IMG/VR virus record: IMGVR_UViG_2695420485_000005
Source of the DNA: a virus
Taxonomy: Duplodnaviria > Heunggongvirae > Uroviricota > Caudoviricetes
DNA length: 5,936 bases
Strand: one strand, 5' to 3'
Positions 279-5,936 of the stretch are shown here, one piece after another. Each line of letters starts with the position of its first letter. Within the stretch, counting starts at the first letter, position 1. Position numbers and translations under genes: made by a program. A model generated the notes under the pieces. That model worked only from the letters and a program-made list of their open reading frames with translations. It did not search any database and was not told where the DNA came from.

Positions 279-569
279 TCATCTTTTAACTCCATATACC
301 GCCAATACCCGTTTCATCGCTGCACTCTGGCGACACTCCTTAAAAATCAGGTTCGTGCTCACCTTTCCTTCCCGTTCTTCCCTGGTAGCAAACCGGTAAT
401 ACACCGTTCGCCAGACCTTACCTTCGATAACCAGAAGACCTGCCCGTGCCATTTTAGCCGCGGCCTGATTTATGCTGGTTACTGTTGCGCCTGTTAGCGC
501 GGCAACGTCCGGCGCACAGAAGCTATTATGCGTCCCCAGGTAATGAATAATTGCCTCTTTGCCCGTCAT
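279..569 (-). CDS. ren: Ren protein (lambda ren homolog, 96 aa)
   Basis: The 96-aa product MTGKEAIIHYLGTHNSFCAPDVAALTGATV... matches lambda Ren almost residue for residue as I recall it. Its start overlaps the P stop (ATGA overlap at 566-569), as in lambda. Confidence 0.85.
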   Translation of the reverse strand: MTGKEAIIHYLGTHNSFCAPDVAALTGATVTSINQAAAKMARAGLLVIEGKVWRTVYYRFATREEREGKVSTNLIFKECRQSAAMKRVLAVYGVKR

Positions 570-1267
570 ACACTTGCTCCTTTCAGTCCGAACTTAGCTT
601 TAATTTCTGCGATCTTCGCCAGCGCCTGAACATGATTTAGAGGTCTGCCGCCCATGACAGGAAGTTGTTTTACTGGTTCAGGGATCACCTCACCACGATT
701 AATTCTCGCAGTCATATGGACAAGCTCATCTGCGGCCTTGCGCCGTAATTCCGCGTCAGTCAGCGCATTGGCCCGCATGTTCTGGTACAGGTTGGTAACC
801 AGCCAGTAGTGCGCGTTTGATTTCCACGGATAAGACTCTGCATCCGGATACAGGCCACGCTTCCGGCAATACTCGTAAACCATATCAACCAGCTCGCTGA
901 CGTTTGGCAGTCCGGCGATAACGGATGCTTCTTCCCGGCACCATGCAACAAACTGCCCGGGTGATGGAAGAAATGGTCGATTCTGCCGACGGGCTACGCG
1001 CATTCCTGCGTTAACCTGTTCCATTGTGGTGATCCCGTTTTCCCGGAAAGCCAGAACCCACTGGCGGCGGATTTCGTTCAGTTCGTTCTGGTCACGGTTA
1101 GCCAGGCTCGCCGGGAAAGTTGCCAGTAACTGGCTGAACACACCGTTGATGATCTGCGCTACCTGCTGTACCTGCGGCTTTTCGTCGTACTGTTCCGGCA
1201 TGTTGTTGGCGATCCGACGCATCTGCTCACGGTCAAAATTAACCATCTGTGCGGCGATGTTTTTCAT
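566..1267 (-). CDS. P: Replication protein P (DnaB helicase loader), 233 aa
   Basis: The 233-aa product MKNIAAQMVNFDREQMRRIANNMPEQYDEKPQV... has the same length and near-identical sequence to lambda P from memory. Its start overlaps the O stop (ATGA at 1264-1267). Confidence 0.95.
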   Translation of the reverse strand: MKNIAAQMVNFDREQMRRIANNMPEQYDEKPQVQQVAQIINGVFSQLLATFPASLANRDQNELNEIRRQWVLAFRENGITTMEQVNAGMRVARRQNRPFLPSPGQFVAWCREEASVIAGLPNVSELVDMVYEYCRKRGLYPDAESYPWKSNAHYWLVTNLYQNMRANALTDAELRRKAADELVHMTARINRGEVIPEPVKQLPVMGGRPLNHVQALAKIAEIKAKFGLKGASV

Positions 1268-2202
1268 AAATCCACCCCGTAAATCCAGTCAGTGTTTGTC
1301 AGGTCGAGTTTTGGTTTTCCGGCTGTCACGCCTGCCTGTTGCTTGTTACGGTTGATTTCGAGTTGGGTCCACTTGTCGCGGAGTTTGGCCGGACTTAGCA
1401 CGTTACCGGACCAGAAGTTGTCCTGGCATGCCCAGCGGAACAGCACGCACATGTCGCGGTGGTTACGTCCGTCACGTTCACGCATCAGGCGGATATCGTT
1501 AGCCCACCCTGCAAAATTCGGTTTTCTGGCTGATGGTGCGATGGTCTTCACCATGTCAAACATCCACTCTGCGGCGGTCAGGTCTTCTGCTGTTCCCCAC
1601 TTGCTGCCGCTCTGAATTGCAGCATCCGGTTTAACCACAGAAAGATCGTTTTCTGGCTGGTCAGAGGATTCGCCAGAATTCTCGGACGAATAATCTTTTC
1701 TTTTTTCTTTTGTAATAGTGTCTTTTGTGTCCCCCTGTTTTGAGGGATAGCAATCCCCTAATTTGAGGGATGTTTTATCCCTCGTTTTAGGGGATTTTCC
1801 CTCGTTTTGAGGGATGTCCCTCATTTTAGGGGAACCTCCCTCGTTTTGAGGGATGCACCATTCTGAGATGTTTTTATTTGGTCCAAACATGCCGCCTTGC
1901 TGCTTGATAATATTCATTCTGACGAGTTCTAACTTGGCTTCATTGCACCGTTTGACAGGTAACTTTGTAATCTCGCTAAGTTGAGAATCGGTGATTCTGT
2001 CCATTGGTTTATTCCACCCATAGGTTTTACGCAGAATGGCAAGCAGCACTTTAAACTGTCGCTTGGTCAGATCTGCGCCTGAATAAGCCTCAATCAGCAT
2101 ATTTGATAGTCTGGCGTAACCATCATCGAGATCTGCCACATTACGCTCCTGTCCGGCAAAGTTACTTCTGCCGAAGTTGAGTATTTTTGCTGTATTTGTC
2201 AT
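1264..2202 (-). CDS. O: Replication initiator protein O, 312 aa (lambda O is 299 aa); contains the origin iterons
   Basis: Product MTNTAKILNFGR...DWIYGVDL matches lambda O from memory. It carries an in-frame 13-aa tandem duplication in the linker (IPQNEGGSPKMRD / IPQNEGKSPKTRD) that corresponds to extra iterons. The iteron array and AT-rich segment lie inside the ORF as in lambda. Confidence 0.95.
   Translation of the reverse strand: MTNTAKILNFGRSNFAGQERNVADLDDGYARLSNMLIEAYSGADLTKRQFKVLLAILRKTYGWNKPMDRITDSQLSEITKLPVKRCNEAKLELVRMNIIKQQGGMFGPNKNISEWCIPQNEGGSPKMRDIPQNEGKSPKTRDKTSLKLGDCYPSKQGDTKDTITKEKRKDYSSENSGESSDQPENDLSVVKPDAAIQSGSKWGTAEDLTAAEWMFDMVKTIAPSARKPNFAGWANDIRLMRERDGRNHRDMCVLFRWACQDNFWSGNVLSPAKLRDKWTQLEINRNKQQAGVTAGKPKLDLTNTDWIYGVDL
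1684..1730. other. AT-rich DNA-unwinding segment of the replication origin
   Basis: The tract TAATCTTTTCTTTTTTCTTTTGTAATAGTGTCTTTTGTGT lies immediately downstream of the iterons in the O reading direction, the same arrangement as ori-lambda. Confidence 0.7.
1731..1853. repeat. ori iterons: six tandem O-binding repeats (consensus on the O-sense strand TCCCTCAAAACGAGGGA)
   Basis: Six copies at about 20-bp spacing: 1731-1748 CCCCCTGTTTTGAGGGAT, 1754-1770 ATCCCCTAATTTGAGGGA, 1777-1794 TCCCTCGTTTTAGGGGAT, 1798-1815 TCCCTCGTTTTGAGGGAT, 1817-1833 TCCCTCATTTTAGGGGA, 1837-1853 TCCCTCGTTTTGAGGGA. Each is an internally palindromic 17-18mer. Lambda has four. Confidence 0.85.
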
Positions 2203-2211: not shown

Positions 2212-2291
2212 TGTTGATAGATCCAGTAATGACCTCAGAATTCCATCTTGATTTGTTCAGAACGCTCGGTCTTGCACACCGGGCGTTTTTT
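2212..2291 (+). ncRNA. oop: oop-like antisense RNA (about 80 nt) complementary to the 3' end of cII
   Basis: A candidate promoter sits upstream and a strong intrinsic terminator ends at 2291. The transcript would overlap the last ~57 nt of cII (2235-2291) in antisense. Size and position match lambda oop (77 nt). Confidence 0.55.
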
Positions 2292-2534
2292 ATTGGTGAG
2301 TTCATCAAGCGCATACTTAAAAGCCCTGCTAATCGGACTGATGTCTGATGCCATTCCGAAAGCACACAAGACCGAAGCAATAAATCTCCAGTCCGTTCTG
2401 CTTATCTTCGATTCATGACAGCCAATCATCTTTGCCAGACCGCGCTGGGTAAGCGTTGACAGGTTGATGAGTAAATCAGTTTCAGCGCGATCAATTTCTC
2501 GCTGTGATAGTTTGCTGTAACTTGTTTGTTCCAT
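2235..2534 (-). CDS. cII: cII transcriptional activator (99 aa)
   Basis: The C-terminus ...LTNKKRPVCKTERSEQIKMEF matches the lambda cII C-terminus (TNKKRP..TERSEQIQMEF) from memory, while the N-terminal two thirds diverge. Position between cro and O is canonical. Confidence 0.9.
   Translation of the reverse strand: MEQTSYSKLSQREIDRAETDLLINLSTLTQRGLAKMIGCHESKISRTDWRFIASVLCAFGMASDISPISRAFKYALDELTNKKRPVCKTERSEQIKMEF
2262..2291 (+). terminator. Rho-independent terminator (t_oop)
   Basis: Stem ACGCTCGG (2262-2269) / CCGGGCGT (2279-2286) with one mismatch and a 9-nt loop, followed by TTTTT(T)ATT on the plus strand. It lies inside the cII 3' coding region on the opposite strand. Confidence 0.7.
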
Positions 2535-2672: not shown

Positions 2673-2906
2673 TTATGCAGCCGATGCTCTACGCGATACG
2701 AACACTAGGTTTTCCTTTTTCACAGGTTTATAACCCGTGAAATTACGAGTAGCTTCTTCGATTGCATTCGCTTTATCAGGGGAAGCTCTTCGAAATCCAT
2801 ATGCAATCTGGTCAAGATAGCCAACTGAAGTTTTCGCTAATGCGGCGAGTCGCTTCCATTCCTCACTAGAAGCCTCTTTTCGCCAGCGTAGTAGTTCATT
2901 ACTCAT
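2673..2906 (-). CDS. cro: Cro-like HTH repressor (77 aa), non-lambda
   Basis: Small protein with a helix-turn-helix-like segment (TSVGYLDQIAYGF), first gene leftward of the operator region and divergent from cI. Good SD (GGAGG, rc of 2911-2915) 5 nt before the ATG. Confidence 0.75.
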   Translation of the reverse strand: MSNELLRWRKEASSEEWKRLAALAKTSVGYLDQIAYGFRRASPDKANAIEEATRNFTGYKPVKKENLVFVSRRASAA

Positions 2907-2933
2907 TAGTGCCTCCGTTTATCACACAGAACA

Positions 2934-3003
2934 ACTTTACCATTTTGATAAATAATCCGCAATGTAAATTTATCATATTGCGTATTTATCCATTTGCTAA
3001 ATA
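2934..3003. promoter_or_regulatory. OR operator region with divergent pR / pRM (17-bp TTTAYC-N5-GATAAA-type sites)
   Basis: Between cro and cI. 17-bp near-palindromes: 2936-2952 TTTACCATTTTGATAAA and 2985-3001 TTTATCCATTTGCTAAA, plus a weaker site 2969-2985 TTTATCATATTGCGTAT. Candidate pR on the minus strand: -35 TTGCGG (rc of 2957-2962), 17-bp spacer, -10 TAAAGT (rc of 2934-2939). pRM could not be pinned down. Confidence 0.55.
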
Positions 3004-3019
3004 GAGGGAAAATTGTGAG

Positions 3020-3724
3020 ATGGAAAACAAAGATATTCGCAAATCGAATCTGGCGTTTTTGCTAGATGAGCATAAAAAAATCGCGGGTAACACTAATGCA
3101 AGCTTTGCCGATAAGCTTGGGGTTAGCCCTTCTCAACTCACGCAAGTCTCCGGTGAAAAAAGCACTCGAAACATAGGGGATAAACTAGCAAGAAAATTTG
3201 AAGCCGCGCTTGGGTTACCTAATGGGTGGCTTGATTTGGTACATGATGTAACACCAATTGCATCATGCTCAGATTCTTTAACTTTTGTCGGTCAGGTAAG
3301 AAAAGGGTTAGTGCGCGTGGTTGGTGAGGCAATTCTTGGTGTTGATGGTGCCATCGAGATGACCGAAGAGCGCGATGGGTGGCTCAAAATTTATAGCGAT
3401 GATCCAGATGCCTTTGGTCTTCGTGTGAAAGGAGACAGCATGTGGCCCAGAATAAAATCAGGAGAATATGTACTCATTGAGCCTAACACCAAAGTATTCC
3501 CGGGTGATGAGGTGTTTGTCAGAACCGTTGAAGGACACAACATGATTAAGGTTCTTGGCTATGACAGAGATGGAGAATACCAATTTACAAGCATTAACCA
3601 GGATCACAGGCCTATAACGTTGCCTTATCATCAAGTAGCAAAGGTGGAGTATGTAGCTGGTATTCTGAAGCAATCTCGCCATCTGGATGACATCGAGGCA
3701 AGGGAGTGGCTGAAAAGTTCGTGA
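3020..3724 (+). CDS. cI: cI-type prophage repressor (234 aa): N-terminal HTH plus C-terminal LexA-like S24 autopeptidase domain
   Basis: N-terminus has an HTH-like segment (SFADKLGVSPSQLTQVSG). C-terminal domain has the Ser/Lys dyad context typical of LexA/cI (GDSMWP ... NMIKVL). Divergent from cro across the operators; SD AGAGGGA upstream. Confidence 0.9.
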   Translation: MENKDIRKSNLAFLLDEHKKIAGNTNASFADKLGVSPSQLTQVSGEKSTRNIGDKLARKFEAALGLPNGWLDLVHDVTPIASCSDSLTFVGQVRKGLVRVVGEAILGVDGAIEMTEERDGWLKIYSDDPDAFGLRVKGDSMWPRIKSGEYVLIEPNTKVFPGDEVFVRTVEGHNMIKVLGYDRDGEYQFTSINQDHRPITLPYHQVAKVEYVAGILKQSRHLDDIEAREWLKSS

Positions 3725-3784
3725 CTTCATCGTCACATAGCTGGTAACCAGTGGCCAGAAGAAACGTTTGGGTGAGGAGGATAG

Positions 3785-4126
3785 ATGGCGTTCACTGACC
3801 TTGAATATCAAGCGGTCAAAAAAGAAGTTCACCAATTCATTGAAAGCATAAGGCCGCCTGAACATATCCGCAATGAACTGGATATTGTTTATAGCATCAA
3901 TGACCAAACGATAGATATCGGCGAACAGCGCCCCGTGTGGCAGGGCAACCCAGGTGAAACAAACATCCTGCCATCAGCAAGAATCAAGTACATACGTTCT
4001 CTGGATAGATGGAAAATCTATTGGATGCGGAAGGATATGAAATGGCATCAGTACAGTACTGAACTTTCGCTGACTGATGCGCTTGAGCTTGTGCGTGCTG
4101 ACCCGGATTGCTGCTTCTTCGGATGA
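3785..4126 (+). CDS. Hypothetical protein (113 aa), first gene of the cargo cassette downstream of cI
   Basis: SD GAGGAGG (3774-3780) 4 nt upstream of the ATG. Same strand as cI, 60 bp after the cI stop. No motif I can assign; ends in ...DPDCCFFG. Confidence 0.6.
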   Translation: MAFTDLEYQAVKKEVHQFIESIRPPEHIRNELDIVYSINDQTIDIGEQRPVWQGNPGETNILPSARIKYIRSLDRWKIYWMRKDMKWHQYSTELSLTDALELVRADPDCCFFG

Positions 4127-4196
4127 GTGAAGAGACGTTTGGATGATGGATGATCGCAGAGATGCTCGTAGAGCATACAGCGATGCAGGAGAATTT

Positions 4197-4631
4197 ATGG
4201 CACTTAATTTAGAAAGAATATCTTTTATAACCCCATTTGATAGCAGCGAAGAACCCAACCAACCGACGCTTAATTTTACATGCAATGAATTTCCTGCGCG
4301 GCTATCAATTGATTTCAGGGTTGGTATGATCGGGTTGAAACCAAATTCAAGATATAATTTGGGTATTATGGTAATCCCCGCGCACCTAATTATAAAAAAA
4401 GGTGAGGAAATTCAATTCCCTGACGGCTCTTCGGAATCAGTTTCACTTTTCATCGATACGAAAGATAGCCATTTTGAAACAGGGGTTGGCGGACAGGTAA
4501 TAGTAACATTGAAAGAAATTAGGGTCCCAGCTAAAGGGCTGTATAGTGTTATAGGGATATTGCAAGATAATGAAGACCCTAAAAATGAACTTCATAAAAA
4601 TGAATCATTTTTCACCGTAGAGCTATTATGA
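4197..4631 (+). CDS. Hypothetical protein (145 aa from ATG 4197; maximal ORF from 4143 = 162 aa), AT-rich, translationally coupled to the downstream gene
   Basis: The in-frame ATG at 4197 has a good SD (AGGAG 4187-4191, 5-nt spacer), whereas the ATG at 4143 has none, so I prefer 4197. The stop overlaps the next start (ATGA at 4628-4631). The region is visibly AT-rich compared with the flanking phage genes. Confidence 0.55.
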   Translation: MALNLERISFITPFDSSEEPNQPTLNFTCNEFPARLSIDFRVGMIGLKPNSRYNLGIMVIPAHLIIKKGEEIQFPDGSSESVSLFIDTKDSHFETGVGGQVIVTLKEIRVPAKGLYSVIGILQDNEDPKNELHKNESFFTVELL

Positions 4632-5248
4632 GTGACGACAGTAATTTAAATAATCATGGAAAGCAAGACACCAACATATCTGAAAGCCGGAGGTTGAAGG
4701 TTGTTGGCGGTTCCGATTTTGAGGCTGAATTTGATAATTCTCCCACCAAGGTGCAAAATAATTACATAAAACCGCCACAAACGGAGGAAGAAGTGGGAAC
4801 GATCAGCAGAGAGGAACTTGATGCTCGCTTAGCTGCTAATAAAGCAGAGATGGAGTCTATTGCTTCTTCCATTAGGGCTGACATGGCTCTATCTCGTGAA
4901 AGCGTTAATGTCCAATTTGCATCACTTAATGCAGCCATAAGCTCTCTATCGTCCAAGATCGATGGAAAGATGGATAGCGCTGCTGGCGATATAAAAGCAA
5001 TTAATGGGAGATTCGAAGGAATTCAAGGACAAATAACAGGGGTTAATACCGCAATTAGTGGTGTTCAGTCGGGTATTTCTATACGATTAGCCATTTTTAG
5101 TGTCATTATCGCTGTAATAGTTGCGATTCCCGGGCTGGTATCAGCTTTAAAGTCAGACCACGTACCTTTGCAACAGCCTTCCACTTTGCAAGCGCCGCCA
5201 CAAAATACCCAGCCAACAGACAACAAAAAAATCACTCCCCAGCATTAA
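4628..5248 (+). CDS. Hypothetical tail-anchored membrane protein (206 aa): cytoplasmic coiled-coil/repeat region, single C-terminal TM helix, Pro/Gln-rich tail
   Basis: Hydrophobic stretch LAIFSVIIAVIVAIPGLVSAL near the C-terminus. The preceding region shows an ~11-residue periodicity (GDIKAINGRFE / GIQGQITGVNT / AISGVQSGISI). C-terminal tail is PLQQPSTLQAPPQNTQPTDNKKITPQH. No signal peptide. Confidence 0.6.
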   Translation: MSDDSNLNNHGKQDTNISESRRLKVVGGSDFEAEFDNSPTKVQNNYIKPPQTEEEVGTISREELDARLAANKAEMESIASSIRADMALSRESVNVQFASLNAAISSLSSKIDGKMDSAAGDIKAINGRFEGIQGQITGVNTAISGVQSGISIRLAIFSVIIAVIVAIPGLVSALKSDHVPLQQPSTLQAPPQNTQPTDNKKITPQH

Positions 5249-5256
5249 CGCATTAA

Positions 5257-5282
5257 CCCGGCCTCAGCGCCGGGTTTTCTTT
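5257..5282 (+). terminator. Rho-independent terminator ending the cI/cargo operon (tIMM-like)
   Basis: Stem CCCGGC (5257-5262) / GCCGGG (5269-5274), 6-nt loop, followed by TTTTCTTTG. It lies 9 nt after the stop of the 206-aa gene. Confidence 0.7.
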
Positions 5283-5462
5283 GCCTCACGATCCCCACAC
5301 CTAAAAACACATAACCAATTGTATTTGTTGAAAAATAAATAGATACAACTTGCTAAACAACGCAATCCAGATCTCCCTCAAATCTCTTTATTTATCCTGT
5401 CGAATTCCTACAACAAAATAAAACACCATAAGAATCAATACGATATTTGAAAACCAAGAGAA

Positions 5463-5505
5463 TTTATCATTTTGCTATTGTCATTAATTTATCATTCCGA
5501 TAAAG
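5463..5505 (+). promoter_or_regulatory. OL operators with candidate pL
   Basis: A perfect 17-bp palindrome TTTATCATTCCGATAAA (5488-5504) and an adjacent site TTTATCATTTTGCTATT (5463-5479) 25 bp apart share the half-site used in OR. Candidate pL: -35 TTGTCA (5478-5483) with a poor -10 (ATAAAG/GATAAA, 5499-5505), oriented toward N. Confidence 0.5.
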
Positions 5506-5574
5506 TTCACCCATCAGCAGGACGCACTACTCACCAGGGCGGTGAATATACAACGATTCGAATATGAATCTACG

Positions 5575-5589
5575 GCGCTGACAAAGCGC
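5575..5589 (+). promoter_or_regulatory. nutL boxB hairpin (GCGCT-GACAA-AGCGC)
   Basis: 5-bp stem with a GACAA loop, preceded by CTACG exactly as in nutR. It lies in the leader between the putative pL and N. No convincing boxA was found upstream (best is a weak CGCACTACT at 5523-5531). Confidence 0.6.
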
Positions 5590-5754
5590 AATAACCAAAG
5601 TGAACTTTGGGGTGTGGTGAAGGGTTCATGGACGGGAATATGTCGCACGTAAAGCGGCGAGGCCTGCGGGACTATTGCCGAATTGAAGTAGGCCGAAACA
5701 GGTCGAAATGGGTCTCCCACCTACCACACCACCAAAGTTCATCAGGAGGTCTAT

Positions 5755-5936
5755 ATGACACGCAGAACTCAGTTCAAAGGCAATTCACGTTCTCGTCGTC
5801 GTGAGCGTTTAAAGGCAAAGGCATTAGCTAACGGCGTACTGGCCCGCGAAGAAGCAATAAGTTCAGAAGTATTACACCGCCCTACTCTAAGCAGAGCGCA
5901 GATTCAGGCTAAAGGTACTCACGAAACGCCTGAGCG
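5755..5936 (+). CDS. N: N-type transcription antitermination protein, 5' portion (runs off the window end)
   Basis: ATG at 5755 with SD AGGAGG (5744-5749). The translation MTRRTQFKGNSRSRRRERLKAKALANGVLAREE... has an arginine-rich motif near the N-terminus as in N proteins, and I recall this N-terminus from Stx-phage (H-19B/933W-type) N. The open frame continues to the window end. Not in the ORF track because there is no stop in the window. Confidence 0.8.
   Translation, partial: MTRRTQFKGNSRSRRRERLKAKALANGVLAREEAISSEVLHRPTLSRAQIQAKGTHETPE

Follow-up and report, generated by a model that had tools for sequence, protein, structure and literature searches.

A mobile two-gene prophage cassette in the rexAB position combines a constant membrane-protein core with exchangeable partner genes

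We analyzed a 5,936-nucleotide stretch of viral DNA (IMG/VR record IMGVR_UViG_2695420485_000005; "the window" below means this whole stretch), which spans immunity and replication functions of a lambdoid Escherichia coli prophage. Our subject is a pair of overlapping plus-strand genes downstream of the cI repressor gene, which we call ORF-A and ORF-B (for open reading frames A and B). The main new result is the modular architecture of this pair. ORF-B homologues keep the same coiled-coil and transmembrane (TM) core while their N-termini change with the small protein encoded just upstream, so that the system shows one variable and one constant module. On balance we lean slightly towards an anti-phage role for the pair, an assignment drawn from its position and architecture. 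The features of the pair are as follows; the conservation values are those of the ORF-B family.

4187-4191, plus strand: AGGAG, Shine-Dalgarno sequence of ORF-A, read from the sequence
4197-4631, plus strand: ORF-A, a 144-residue, predicted cytoplasmic all-beta protein (immunoglobulin (Ig)/fibronectin type III (FnIII)-like sandwich) and class-1 partner
4628-4631, plus strand: ATGA stop/start overlap (translational coupling), read from the sequence
4628-4792, plus strand: ORF-B residues 1-55, variable N-terminus predicted to be disordered (conservation 0.30)
4793-4963, plus strand: ORF-B residues 56-112, conserved coiled-coil helix (SREELDARLAANKAEMESIA...; conservation 0.69)
4964-5080, plus strand: ORF-B residues 113-151, Gly-heptad segment (conservation 0.85)
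5081-5149, plus strand: ORF-B residues 152-174, single TM helix serving as a predicted tail anchor (Kyte-Doolittle 2.71)
5150-5248, plus strand: ORF-B residues 175-206 and stop, short Pro/Gln-rich tail, predicted periplasmic (conservation 0.46)

ORF-A and ORF-B are two real genes under purifying selection. When compared with their homologues, both genes showed saturated synonymous differences (proportion pS 0.73-0.84) and restrained nonsynonymous differences (pN 0.11-0.43), and on this contrast we rejected a single frameshifted pseudogene. The ORF-A stop codon (TGA, 4629-4631) and the ORF-B start codon (ATG, 4628-4630) have the ATGA at 4628-4631 in common, as a preliminary description of this DNA had stated, and its figure of about 145 residues for ORF-A agrees with the 144 residues that follow from ATG 4197. 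The starts of homologues, including the HK542 annotation, correspond to this ATG. A listed start at 4143 (162 residues) was rejected: it lacks a Shine-Dalgarno sequence, it lies inside the linker shared with other phages, and the homologues are 143-144 residues long. ORF-B is preceded by only a weak Shine-Dalgarno sequence, an arrangement that fits termination-reinitiation coupling. The -4 ATGA overlap was present in all class-1 pairs surveyed and was kept even at 66% (Citrobacter) and 37% (Cedecea) ORF-A identity.

The expected layout of one soluble and one membrane protein was borne out. ORF-A has no hydrophobic segment (maximum Kyte-Doolittle value 1.01), and ORF-B, encoded at 4628-5248 and 206 residues long, has one C-terminal TM helix. 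The structure model of ORF-A was of moderate confidence (predicted local distance difference test, pLDDT, 70.7). A fold search with it returned hundreds of unrelated Ig, FnIII and carbohydrate-binding-module domains together with a few uncharacterized small phage proteins. No Pfam family matched ORF-A at E ≤ 0.1, and PADLOC-DB v2 gave no match either; Pfam and the fold search likewise revealed no helix-turn-helix (HTH), ribbon-helix-helix or AbrB domain. A deep profile search recovered about 20 relatives of the same size, and the remaining matches were repeat-protein noise, such as a 4,194-residue protein with 22 matching stretches.

The ORF-B model was of low confidence overall (pLDDT 58.8) and contained a long helix at residues 61-139, with pLDDT 81-91 for residues 61-110. 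Glycines recur in heptads at 113/120/127/134 and 131/138/145, and nowhere is the family more strongly conserved than here. It is followed by a modelled helix at 150-174 (conservation 0.74) with its hydrophobic peak of 2.71 at residues 154-172. ORF-B is likely a tail-anchored inner-membrane protein with its N-terminus in the cytoplasm, because there is no signal peptide and the large N-terminal part is acidic. The tail beyond the TM helix carries a degenerate version of the family motif PIIIQVP. A fold search of the Protein Data Bank with the ORF-B model found no match. The family comprises 67 clusters, confined to Enterobacterales and all hypothetical or unnamed, and a scan of genome contigs with the ORF-B profile gave a single confirmed locus, in Xenorhabdus. 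In three loci (L003:6429-6998, L050:3782-4489 and L053:3782-4495) long (Ala-Pro)n repeats close the predicted periplasmic tail and are reminiscent of rigid periplasm-spanning spacers. The first of these, from Citrobacter, also has a divergent core, with 30-40% identity to the others.

A small same-strand partner gene was found upstream of every intact ORF-B homologue surveyed except one (L046), for which the mechanical ORF survey listed none. We distinguish at least five partner classes, without detectable mutual similarity.

The ORF-A family (class 1), always joined to ORF-B by the ATGA overlap
A Salmonella protein of 149 residues, marginally similar to ORF-A in the C-terminal hairpin only (hhalign probability 37%)
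Proteins of about 96 residues
Proteins of about 99 residues
Proteins of 112-120 residues with a CxxC..CxxC pattern (Zn-ribbon-like)

In this count the Salmonella 149-residue and the 97-99-residue partners are classes separate from ORF-A, and hhalign comparison of the ORF-A profile with the 97-99-residue classes showed no similarity. The N-terminal 40-110 residues of ORF-B cluster exactly by partner class, and no cluster mixes classes. In keeping with this pattern, residues 1-55 of the window ORF-B bear the class-1-specific motif LKVVGGSDF..F(D/E)N, and the general form L[KR]V[VI]GGSDF..F[DE]N is restricted to ORF-B proteins with ORF-A-type partners. The coiled coil, Gly-heptad segment and TM helix are constant across partner classes.

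The relationships among the cores do not follow those of the partners. The core linked to class-5 partners is 74-78% identical to the E. coli and Klebsiella-type class-1 cores, while the Cedecea and Citrobacter class-1 cores have 35-67% identity to other class-1 cores; the class-4 core of locus L052 is nearest to class-3 cores. Core and partner class are thus incongruent, and the partner gene together with the 5' end of ORF-B has therefore been recombined onto different cores. These comparisons provide strong indirect evidence that the partner docks on the N-terminus of ORF-B, and we propose residues 1-55 as the docking site for ORF-A. A physical complex of the two proteins is probable. The preliminary description had argued from the overlap that the two genes probably act together; constant co-occurrence, conservation of the overlap and co-variation of the ORF-B N-terminus with the partner all speak for this.

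The pair occupies a well-defined slot in the repressor operon, whose features are listed here.

3020-3724, plus strand: cI repressor, 234 residues, with an S24 peptidase C-terminal domain (Pfam Peptidase_S24, 3.8e-16)
3749-3778, plus strand: linker copy 1, CAGTGGCCAGAAGAAACGTTTGGGTGA, a fossil of a lambda-type cI 3' end (89% identity to the lambda cI 3' end over 27 nucleotides)
3785-4126, plus strand: DUF3024 gene, 113 residues (Pfam DUF3024, 2.4e-31; PADLOC candidate PDC-S43, 7e-42)
4128-4165, plus strand: left joint, consisting of linker copy 2 and leader (from blastn junctions and aligned sequences)
5254-5375, plus strand: right joint (98% identity to HK542, 89% to lambda, 85% to 933W)
5255-5284, plus strand: intrinsic terminator AACCCGGCCTCAGCGCCGGGTTTTCTTT, the t_imm/tM equivalent, with an eight-pair stem (six G-C pairs) followed by a T run
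After the terminator, at the right end of the window, in the plus-strand listing: the PL/nutL region and then the start of N

Window positions 4128-5375 are 98.2% identical to phages HK542 and HK244, in which both genes stand right after a lambda-type cI and before PL and N. Phage 933W matches the window at 3271-4165 (98%) and 5254-5936 (85%) and carries L0083-stk-L0081 in between. The left joint is a crossover zone common to HK542, 933W and the window. It opens with GAAGAGACGTTTGG-TGA, the end of a lambda-type cI (..PEETFG*); this sequence is the genuine cI end in lambda and HK542, and a fossil copy sits after the DUF3024 gene in both the window and 933W. The right joint corresponds to the lambda sequence immediately past the rexB stop codon. 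Because both joints match the lambda and 933W flanks, the pair fills the exact slot that rexAB occupies in lambda and stk in 933W. Comparison of the aligned sequences indicates that it was swapped in by recombination within these short conserved flanks. The fossil cI 3' end (..GAAGA(G/A)ACGTTTGG.TGA) also forms a direct repeat around the DUF3024 gene, at 3749-3778 and 4128-4146 in the window and at 4059 and 4430 in the 933W locus L002. It appears to work as a universal linker through which cassettes recombine 3' of cI.

The transcription unit that holds the pair has cI as its first gene. The terminator at 5255, homologous to lambda sequence just after rexB, closes the cI-DUF3024-ORF-A-ORF-B unit; no other terminator-like site was found on the plus strand between cI and PL, and upstream of the pair we found no promoter-like site above chance. 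Co-transcription with cI from P_RM is the simplest reading and is probably correct. Our confidence in the overall anatomy of cassette and operon is high.

The DUF3024 gene is an independent neighbouring cassette outside the pair. HK542 lacks it, and there the pair lies directly 3' of cI. PDC-S43 is a single-gene defence candidate in PADLOC, and presence or absence of the DUF3024 gene is independent of the pair. The DUF3024 gene and the pair are each candidate defence cassettes, and therefore two would be stacked in one repressor operon.

In lambdoid and Rac-like prophages the pair forms a mobile accessory cassette. It was found in 51 of 5,426 complete E. coli genomes, always chromosomal and in single copy. 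Six different repressor contexts were represented among 22 loci whose cassettes are at least 96% identical, with the DUF3024 gene variably present. We compared 18 representative loci drawn from six genera (Escherichia, Citrobacter, Cedecea, Salmonella, Yersinia and Pectobacterium). A repressor nearly always stood immediately 5' of the pair, and its type varied: in Citrobacter and Pectobacterium it was a Rac-like HTH repressor, in Cedecea and Yersinia an S24 repressor, and in Salmonella an HTH protein. The exception is one Yersinia copy, which is close to tail genes where a prophage ends. The insertion sequence IS1 interrupts the cassette in NZ_CP063473.1 and NZ_CP031134.1, and the cassette is partly deleted (73% coverage) in NZ_CP027459.1 and NZ_CP027445.1; loss of the cassette is therefore tolerated in the lysogen. 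Pair-carrying prophages of Cedecea (L012:9639-10612) and Salmonella (L007:1269-1917) have a Gad1-family (anti-Gabija) gene and a TumE/HVO_A0114 pair close by, additional cargo of the defence or counter-defence type.

Base composition gives a more nuanced picture than the conspicuous AT-richness first noted for about 4200-4640. ORF-A is indeed the lowest-GC (guanine plus cytosine) coding stretch in the window, with 37.5% GC overall and 31.7% at third codon positions (GC3), and a windowed calculation placed 4197-4640 in the lowest 1.2% of windows of the same length. The difference from cI is modest, however, and ORF-B (43.2%) is not AT-rich, its value being near that of cI. For comparison, GC was 44.5% in cI, 45.9% in the DUF3024 gene, 47.6% in O and 53.1% in P; Fisher tests of ORF-A gave p = 0.019 against cI, 0.006 against cI plus DUF3024, 5e-4 against O and 3e-7 against P. 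In every locus examined, the pair was 4-10 GC points below its surroundings. Taken with the 98% identity to HK542 and HK244, the shared junctions and the six repressors, this low GC in each locus upholds the suggestion that the pair was acquired separately.

The minus strand of the window carries further lambdoid genes. The closest matches to the whole window are E. coli chromosomes, for example O55:H7 USDA5905 (99.5%).

279-569, minus strand: ren-like gene
566-1267, minus strand: P
1264-2202, minus strand: O, carrying the origin iterons
2235-2534, minus strand: cII
2673-2906, minus strand: cro

Five iteron copies (TCCCTCGTTTTGAGGGAT-like) lie inside O at 1731-1834 and are identical to the annotated 933W iterons; the 933W sequences number six, two of which are identical and share one window site. 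Positions 1-115 fall outside the alignments, since the best-matching E. coli genomes and 933W all begin at position 116 or later, and this left end adds one more mosaic segment to the window. The stretch 2683-3270, comprising cro, OR and the N-terminal DNA-binding part of cI, has no blastn match to 933W. The C-terminal part of cI, from 3271 onward, is 98% identical to 933W cI, in contrast to the unmatched N-terminal domain; the repressor is therefore a hybrid, and its immunity specificity probably differs from that of 933W. At the other end, the PL/nutL/N region (5254-5936) has only 85% DNA identity to 933W. N starts near 5754 and runs off the window, with 60 visible residues identical to 933W N.

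What might the pair do? Lambdoid phages typically use the P_RM transcript to express heterologous exclusion functions, such as RexAB, 933W Stk and 434 Hex (PMC3564112). We favour an anti-phage reading because rexAB and stk occupy the same slot and because the pair lies in a repressor operon; the neighbouring DUF3024 gene, as a PADLOC defence candidate, is in line with it. The position and architecture suggest, as a tentative model, that the pair is a lysogen-expressed two-component exclusion module made of a constant membrane effector and a swappable partner. In this model the two genes would share a transcript with cI in the lysogen, and their translation would be coupled. The N-terminus, coiled coil and Gly-heptad segment of ORF-B would lie in the cytoplasm, followed by the TM helix and a short periplasmic tail, and ORF-A would be a small cytoplasmic beta-sandwich that binds the variable ORF-B N-terminus. 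ORF-A and this N-terminus would act as a swappable specificity or regulatory module that keeps ORF-B inactive until a product of the infecting phage is sensed, and the constant coiled-coil/Gly-heptad/TM core would be the effector. Once activated, the core would oligomerize, compromise the inner membrane and abort the infection in the manner of Rex, so that heterologous superinfecting phages are excluded. Of these proposals, abortive infection through membrane damage is a more tentative one. Sensing after phage entry is preferred to a block of DNA entry because it is the cytoplasmic parts that have diversified and because very little of ORF-B (about 32 residues) is predicted to reach the periplasm.

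In line with the effector step, there is a weak local similarity between ORF-B residues of about 117-174 and the ClyA family of alpha-pore-forming toxins (SmhB, MakE and MakA). ORF-B aligned with SmhB 151-210 (E = 0.013, 58 residues) and with MakE 95-209 (E = 0.006), a region that we take to be the membrane-inserting toxin head. The alignment of the Gly-heptad and TM segments with the toxin head is plausible, but the structure model is of low confidence there. None of 23 ORF-B family members had a Pfam match of the HBL/ClyA type. The proteins also differ in design: ORF-B is 206 residues long, forms one long helix and is predicted to be anchored with its bulk in the cytoplasm, whereas the toxins are secreted helical bundles of about 350 residues. 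A doubtful reading, yet one worth stating, is that the pair is the founding member of a new and modular family of abortive-infection systems in prophages. In such a family a constant tail-anchored Gly-zipper coiled-coil effector would be combined with interchangeable cassettes, each bringing a small sensor protein and the matching N-terminal docking region, and recombination would re-target it to different invaders; the effector would possibly be a miniature relative or analogue of alpha-pore-forming-toxin heads.

Several points weigh against the exclusion model. The anti-phage function is drawn from position and architecture, and position in a repressor operon is by itself no proof of defence, given that Hex also modulates induction (PMC3564112). 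The pair has no significant homology to characterized defence, toxin or channel families. The toxin similarity is far below the family cut-offs (MakE 15.6 bits against 360, MakA 10.9 against 320) and may be compositional. A single TM helix makes an unusual pore former, RexB and Sbash gp31 each having four. The fold of ORF-A is a generic binding module without a sensor signature, and the structure models of the two proteins are of only moderate (ORF-A) and low (ORF-B) confidence.

Two alternatives survive best, and both are unlikely. In the first, the roles are reversed as in phage Butters, with the partners as active, target-specific binders that would neutralize a phage or host protein and ORF-B as an unchanging scaffold or regulator that would place or restrain them at the inner membrane. 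It is the partner that has diversified, as one would expect of a component that faces a rapidly evolving target, and the beta-sandwich of ORF-A is a binding fold; an interacting soluble-plus-membrane prophage defence pair is also known in Butters gp30/gp31 (PMC7542560). A passive anchor, however, is not expected to keep its juxtamembrane Gly-heptad segment as its most conserved part (0.85), and the Zn-ribbon-like, ~97-residue and beta-sandwich partners would each need an effector activity of their own.

The second alternative, superinfection exclusion at the envelope, has ORF-B block genome entry at the inner membrane with ORF-A as a helper. P22 SieA, HK97 gp15 and T4 Imm block incoming genomes at this site. 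ORF-B is likewise a predicted inner-membrane protein from a prophage immunity region, and its family has a conserved short periplasmic PIIIQVP motif, with Pro-rich or (AP)n tails in relatives. Against this stand the small share of ORF-B beyond the TM helix (about 32 of 206 residues), the degenerate motif in the window protein, and diversification on the cytoplasmic side and in the cytoplasmic partner. Known proteins that block entry are usually encoded by one gene and have domains facing the periplasm, which also counts against this explanation. The PHROG search showed no similarity of the pair to HK97 gp15, P22 SieA or T4 Imm, and with only about 32 residues beyond the TM helix no periplasm-facing functional domain was seen.

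Somewhat less probable again is a toxin-antitoxin or addiction module that stabilizes the prophage without sensing phage, with ORF-A as antitoxin and ORF-B as membrane toxin. A small upstream gene that overlaps the downstream gene is the layout of type II toxin-antitoxin systems, a resemblance of layout only, and obligatory pairing and the cognate match of N-terminus and partner would fit as well. Pfam and the fold search nevertheless showed no DNA-binding or labile-antitoxin hallmark in ORF-A, no promoter-like site above chance was seen ahead of the pair, which presumably relies on the repressor operon, and occasional IS1 insertions and cassette deletions are tolerated. We give a similarly low probability to non-defence lysogenic conversion, in which the effect of the pair would be on the host's envelope or stress physiology or on prophage induction, in the way that Hex acts on 434 repressor cleavage. 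The ORF-B architecture of a cytoplasmic coiled coil with a C-terminal anchor is presumably like that of the tail-anchored host proteins ElaB and YqjD, which would suit such a role. Accessory genes of the repressor operon can also affect induction (PMC3564112). Yet at least five shuffled partner classes and immunity-type mobility are typical of arms-race genes and not of housekeeping modulators; moreover, rexAB and stk, which use this slot, both serve exclusion, and the DUF3024 gene outside it is a PADLOC defence candidate. Chance ORFs or a decaying pseudogene, suggested by nothing except the lack of annotation, can be dismissed in view of saturated pS against low pN, conservation of both families across Enterobacterales and the conserved overlap.

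The rexAB slot is a textbook site of prophage exclusion genes, and its occupant in HK542 and HK244 was previously uncharacterized; the same pair is present in approximately 1% of complete E. coli genomes. Should the pair prove to be a defence system, it would add a family of unusual design, in which a single-TM tail-anchored effector is combined with exchangeable partner-plus-docking modules, and would offer a natural system for studying how recombination re-wires specificity. Some of the phage resistance that has had no explanation in lysogens of pathogenic E. coli, Klebsiella, Salmonella and related bacteria would then also be accounted for, with relevance to phage therapy and to the ecology of Shiga toxin (Stx) phages. 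The conserved linker and terminator joints delimit the slot precisely and can be used for systematic mining of its cargo.

Database searches linked the pair to no named system. Pfam, PHROGs, PADLOC and NCBIfam gave nothing informative for either protein or for the other partner classes, and the PHROG families matched were all of "unknown function". The match of ORF-B to LmuB in PADLOC (E = 0.016) was rejected as coiled-coil noise, as were weak matches to LeoC and JetC; in PADLOC the other partner classes and the ORF-B variants likewise had either no match or a weak one of the coiled-coil kind. The literature on HK542/HK244, DUF3024, the slot and single-TM coiled-coil prophage abortive infection yielded nothing on the pair. 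The holin-like function raised in the preliminary description is unlikely: holin/antiholin pairs belong to the late lysis cassette beside endolysin and spanins, whereas this pair is part of the repressor operon and, in every locus but one, sits in the immunity region downstream of a repressor.

Comparison with known exclusion systems places the pair by position and layout. Sbash gp30/gp31 and Butters gp30/gp31 are prophage-expressed pairs of a cytoplasmic and a membrane protein that act specifically on heterotypic phages (PMC6426596, PMC7542560), and they resemble our pair as two-gene prophage defence loci with one soluble and one membrane product. They differ in that Sbash is a true Rex relative, these mycobacteriophage systems come from Actinobacteria, and they have no homology to our pair and no reported swappable partner classes. 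The L0083-Stk-L0081 region of 933W occupies the slot after cI-DUF3024 and has the same flanking linker and terminator sequences. Stk is an exclusion function expressed in the lysogen that aborts HK97 infection (PMC3564112). It is a soluble eukaryote-like kinase, however, without similarity to ORF-A or ORF-B. Lambda RexAB shares with our pair the slot between the cI 3' end and t_imm, the order of soluble gene first and membrane gene second, the presumed expression with the repressor, and the logic of a cytoplasmic partner with a membrane protein. RexA and Sbash gp30 carry DUF4747, and RexB and Sbash gp31 have four TM helices (PMC6426596). In contrast, ORF-A is a 144-residue beta-sandwich with no match to DUF4747 or any other Pfam family, and ORF-B is a single-TM tail-anchored coiled coil. 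We therefore rejected membership in the RexAB family on both domain content and TM number, even though the location is the same. The two systems have no sequence or domain relationship, and the partner in the system described here comes in several unrelated, exchangeable classes.

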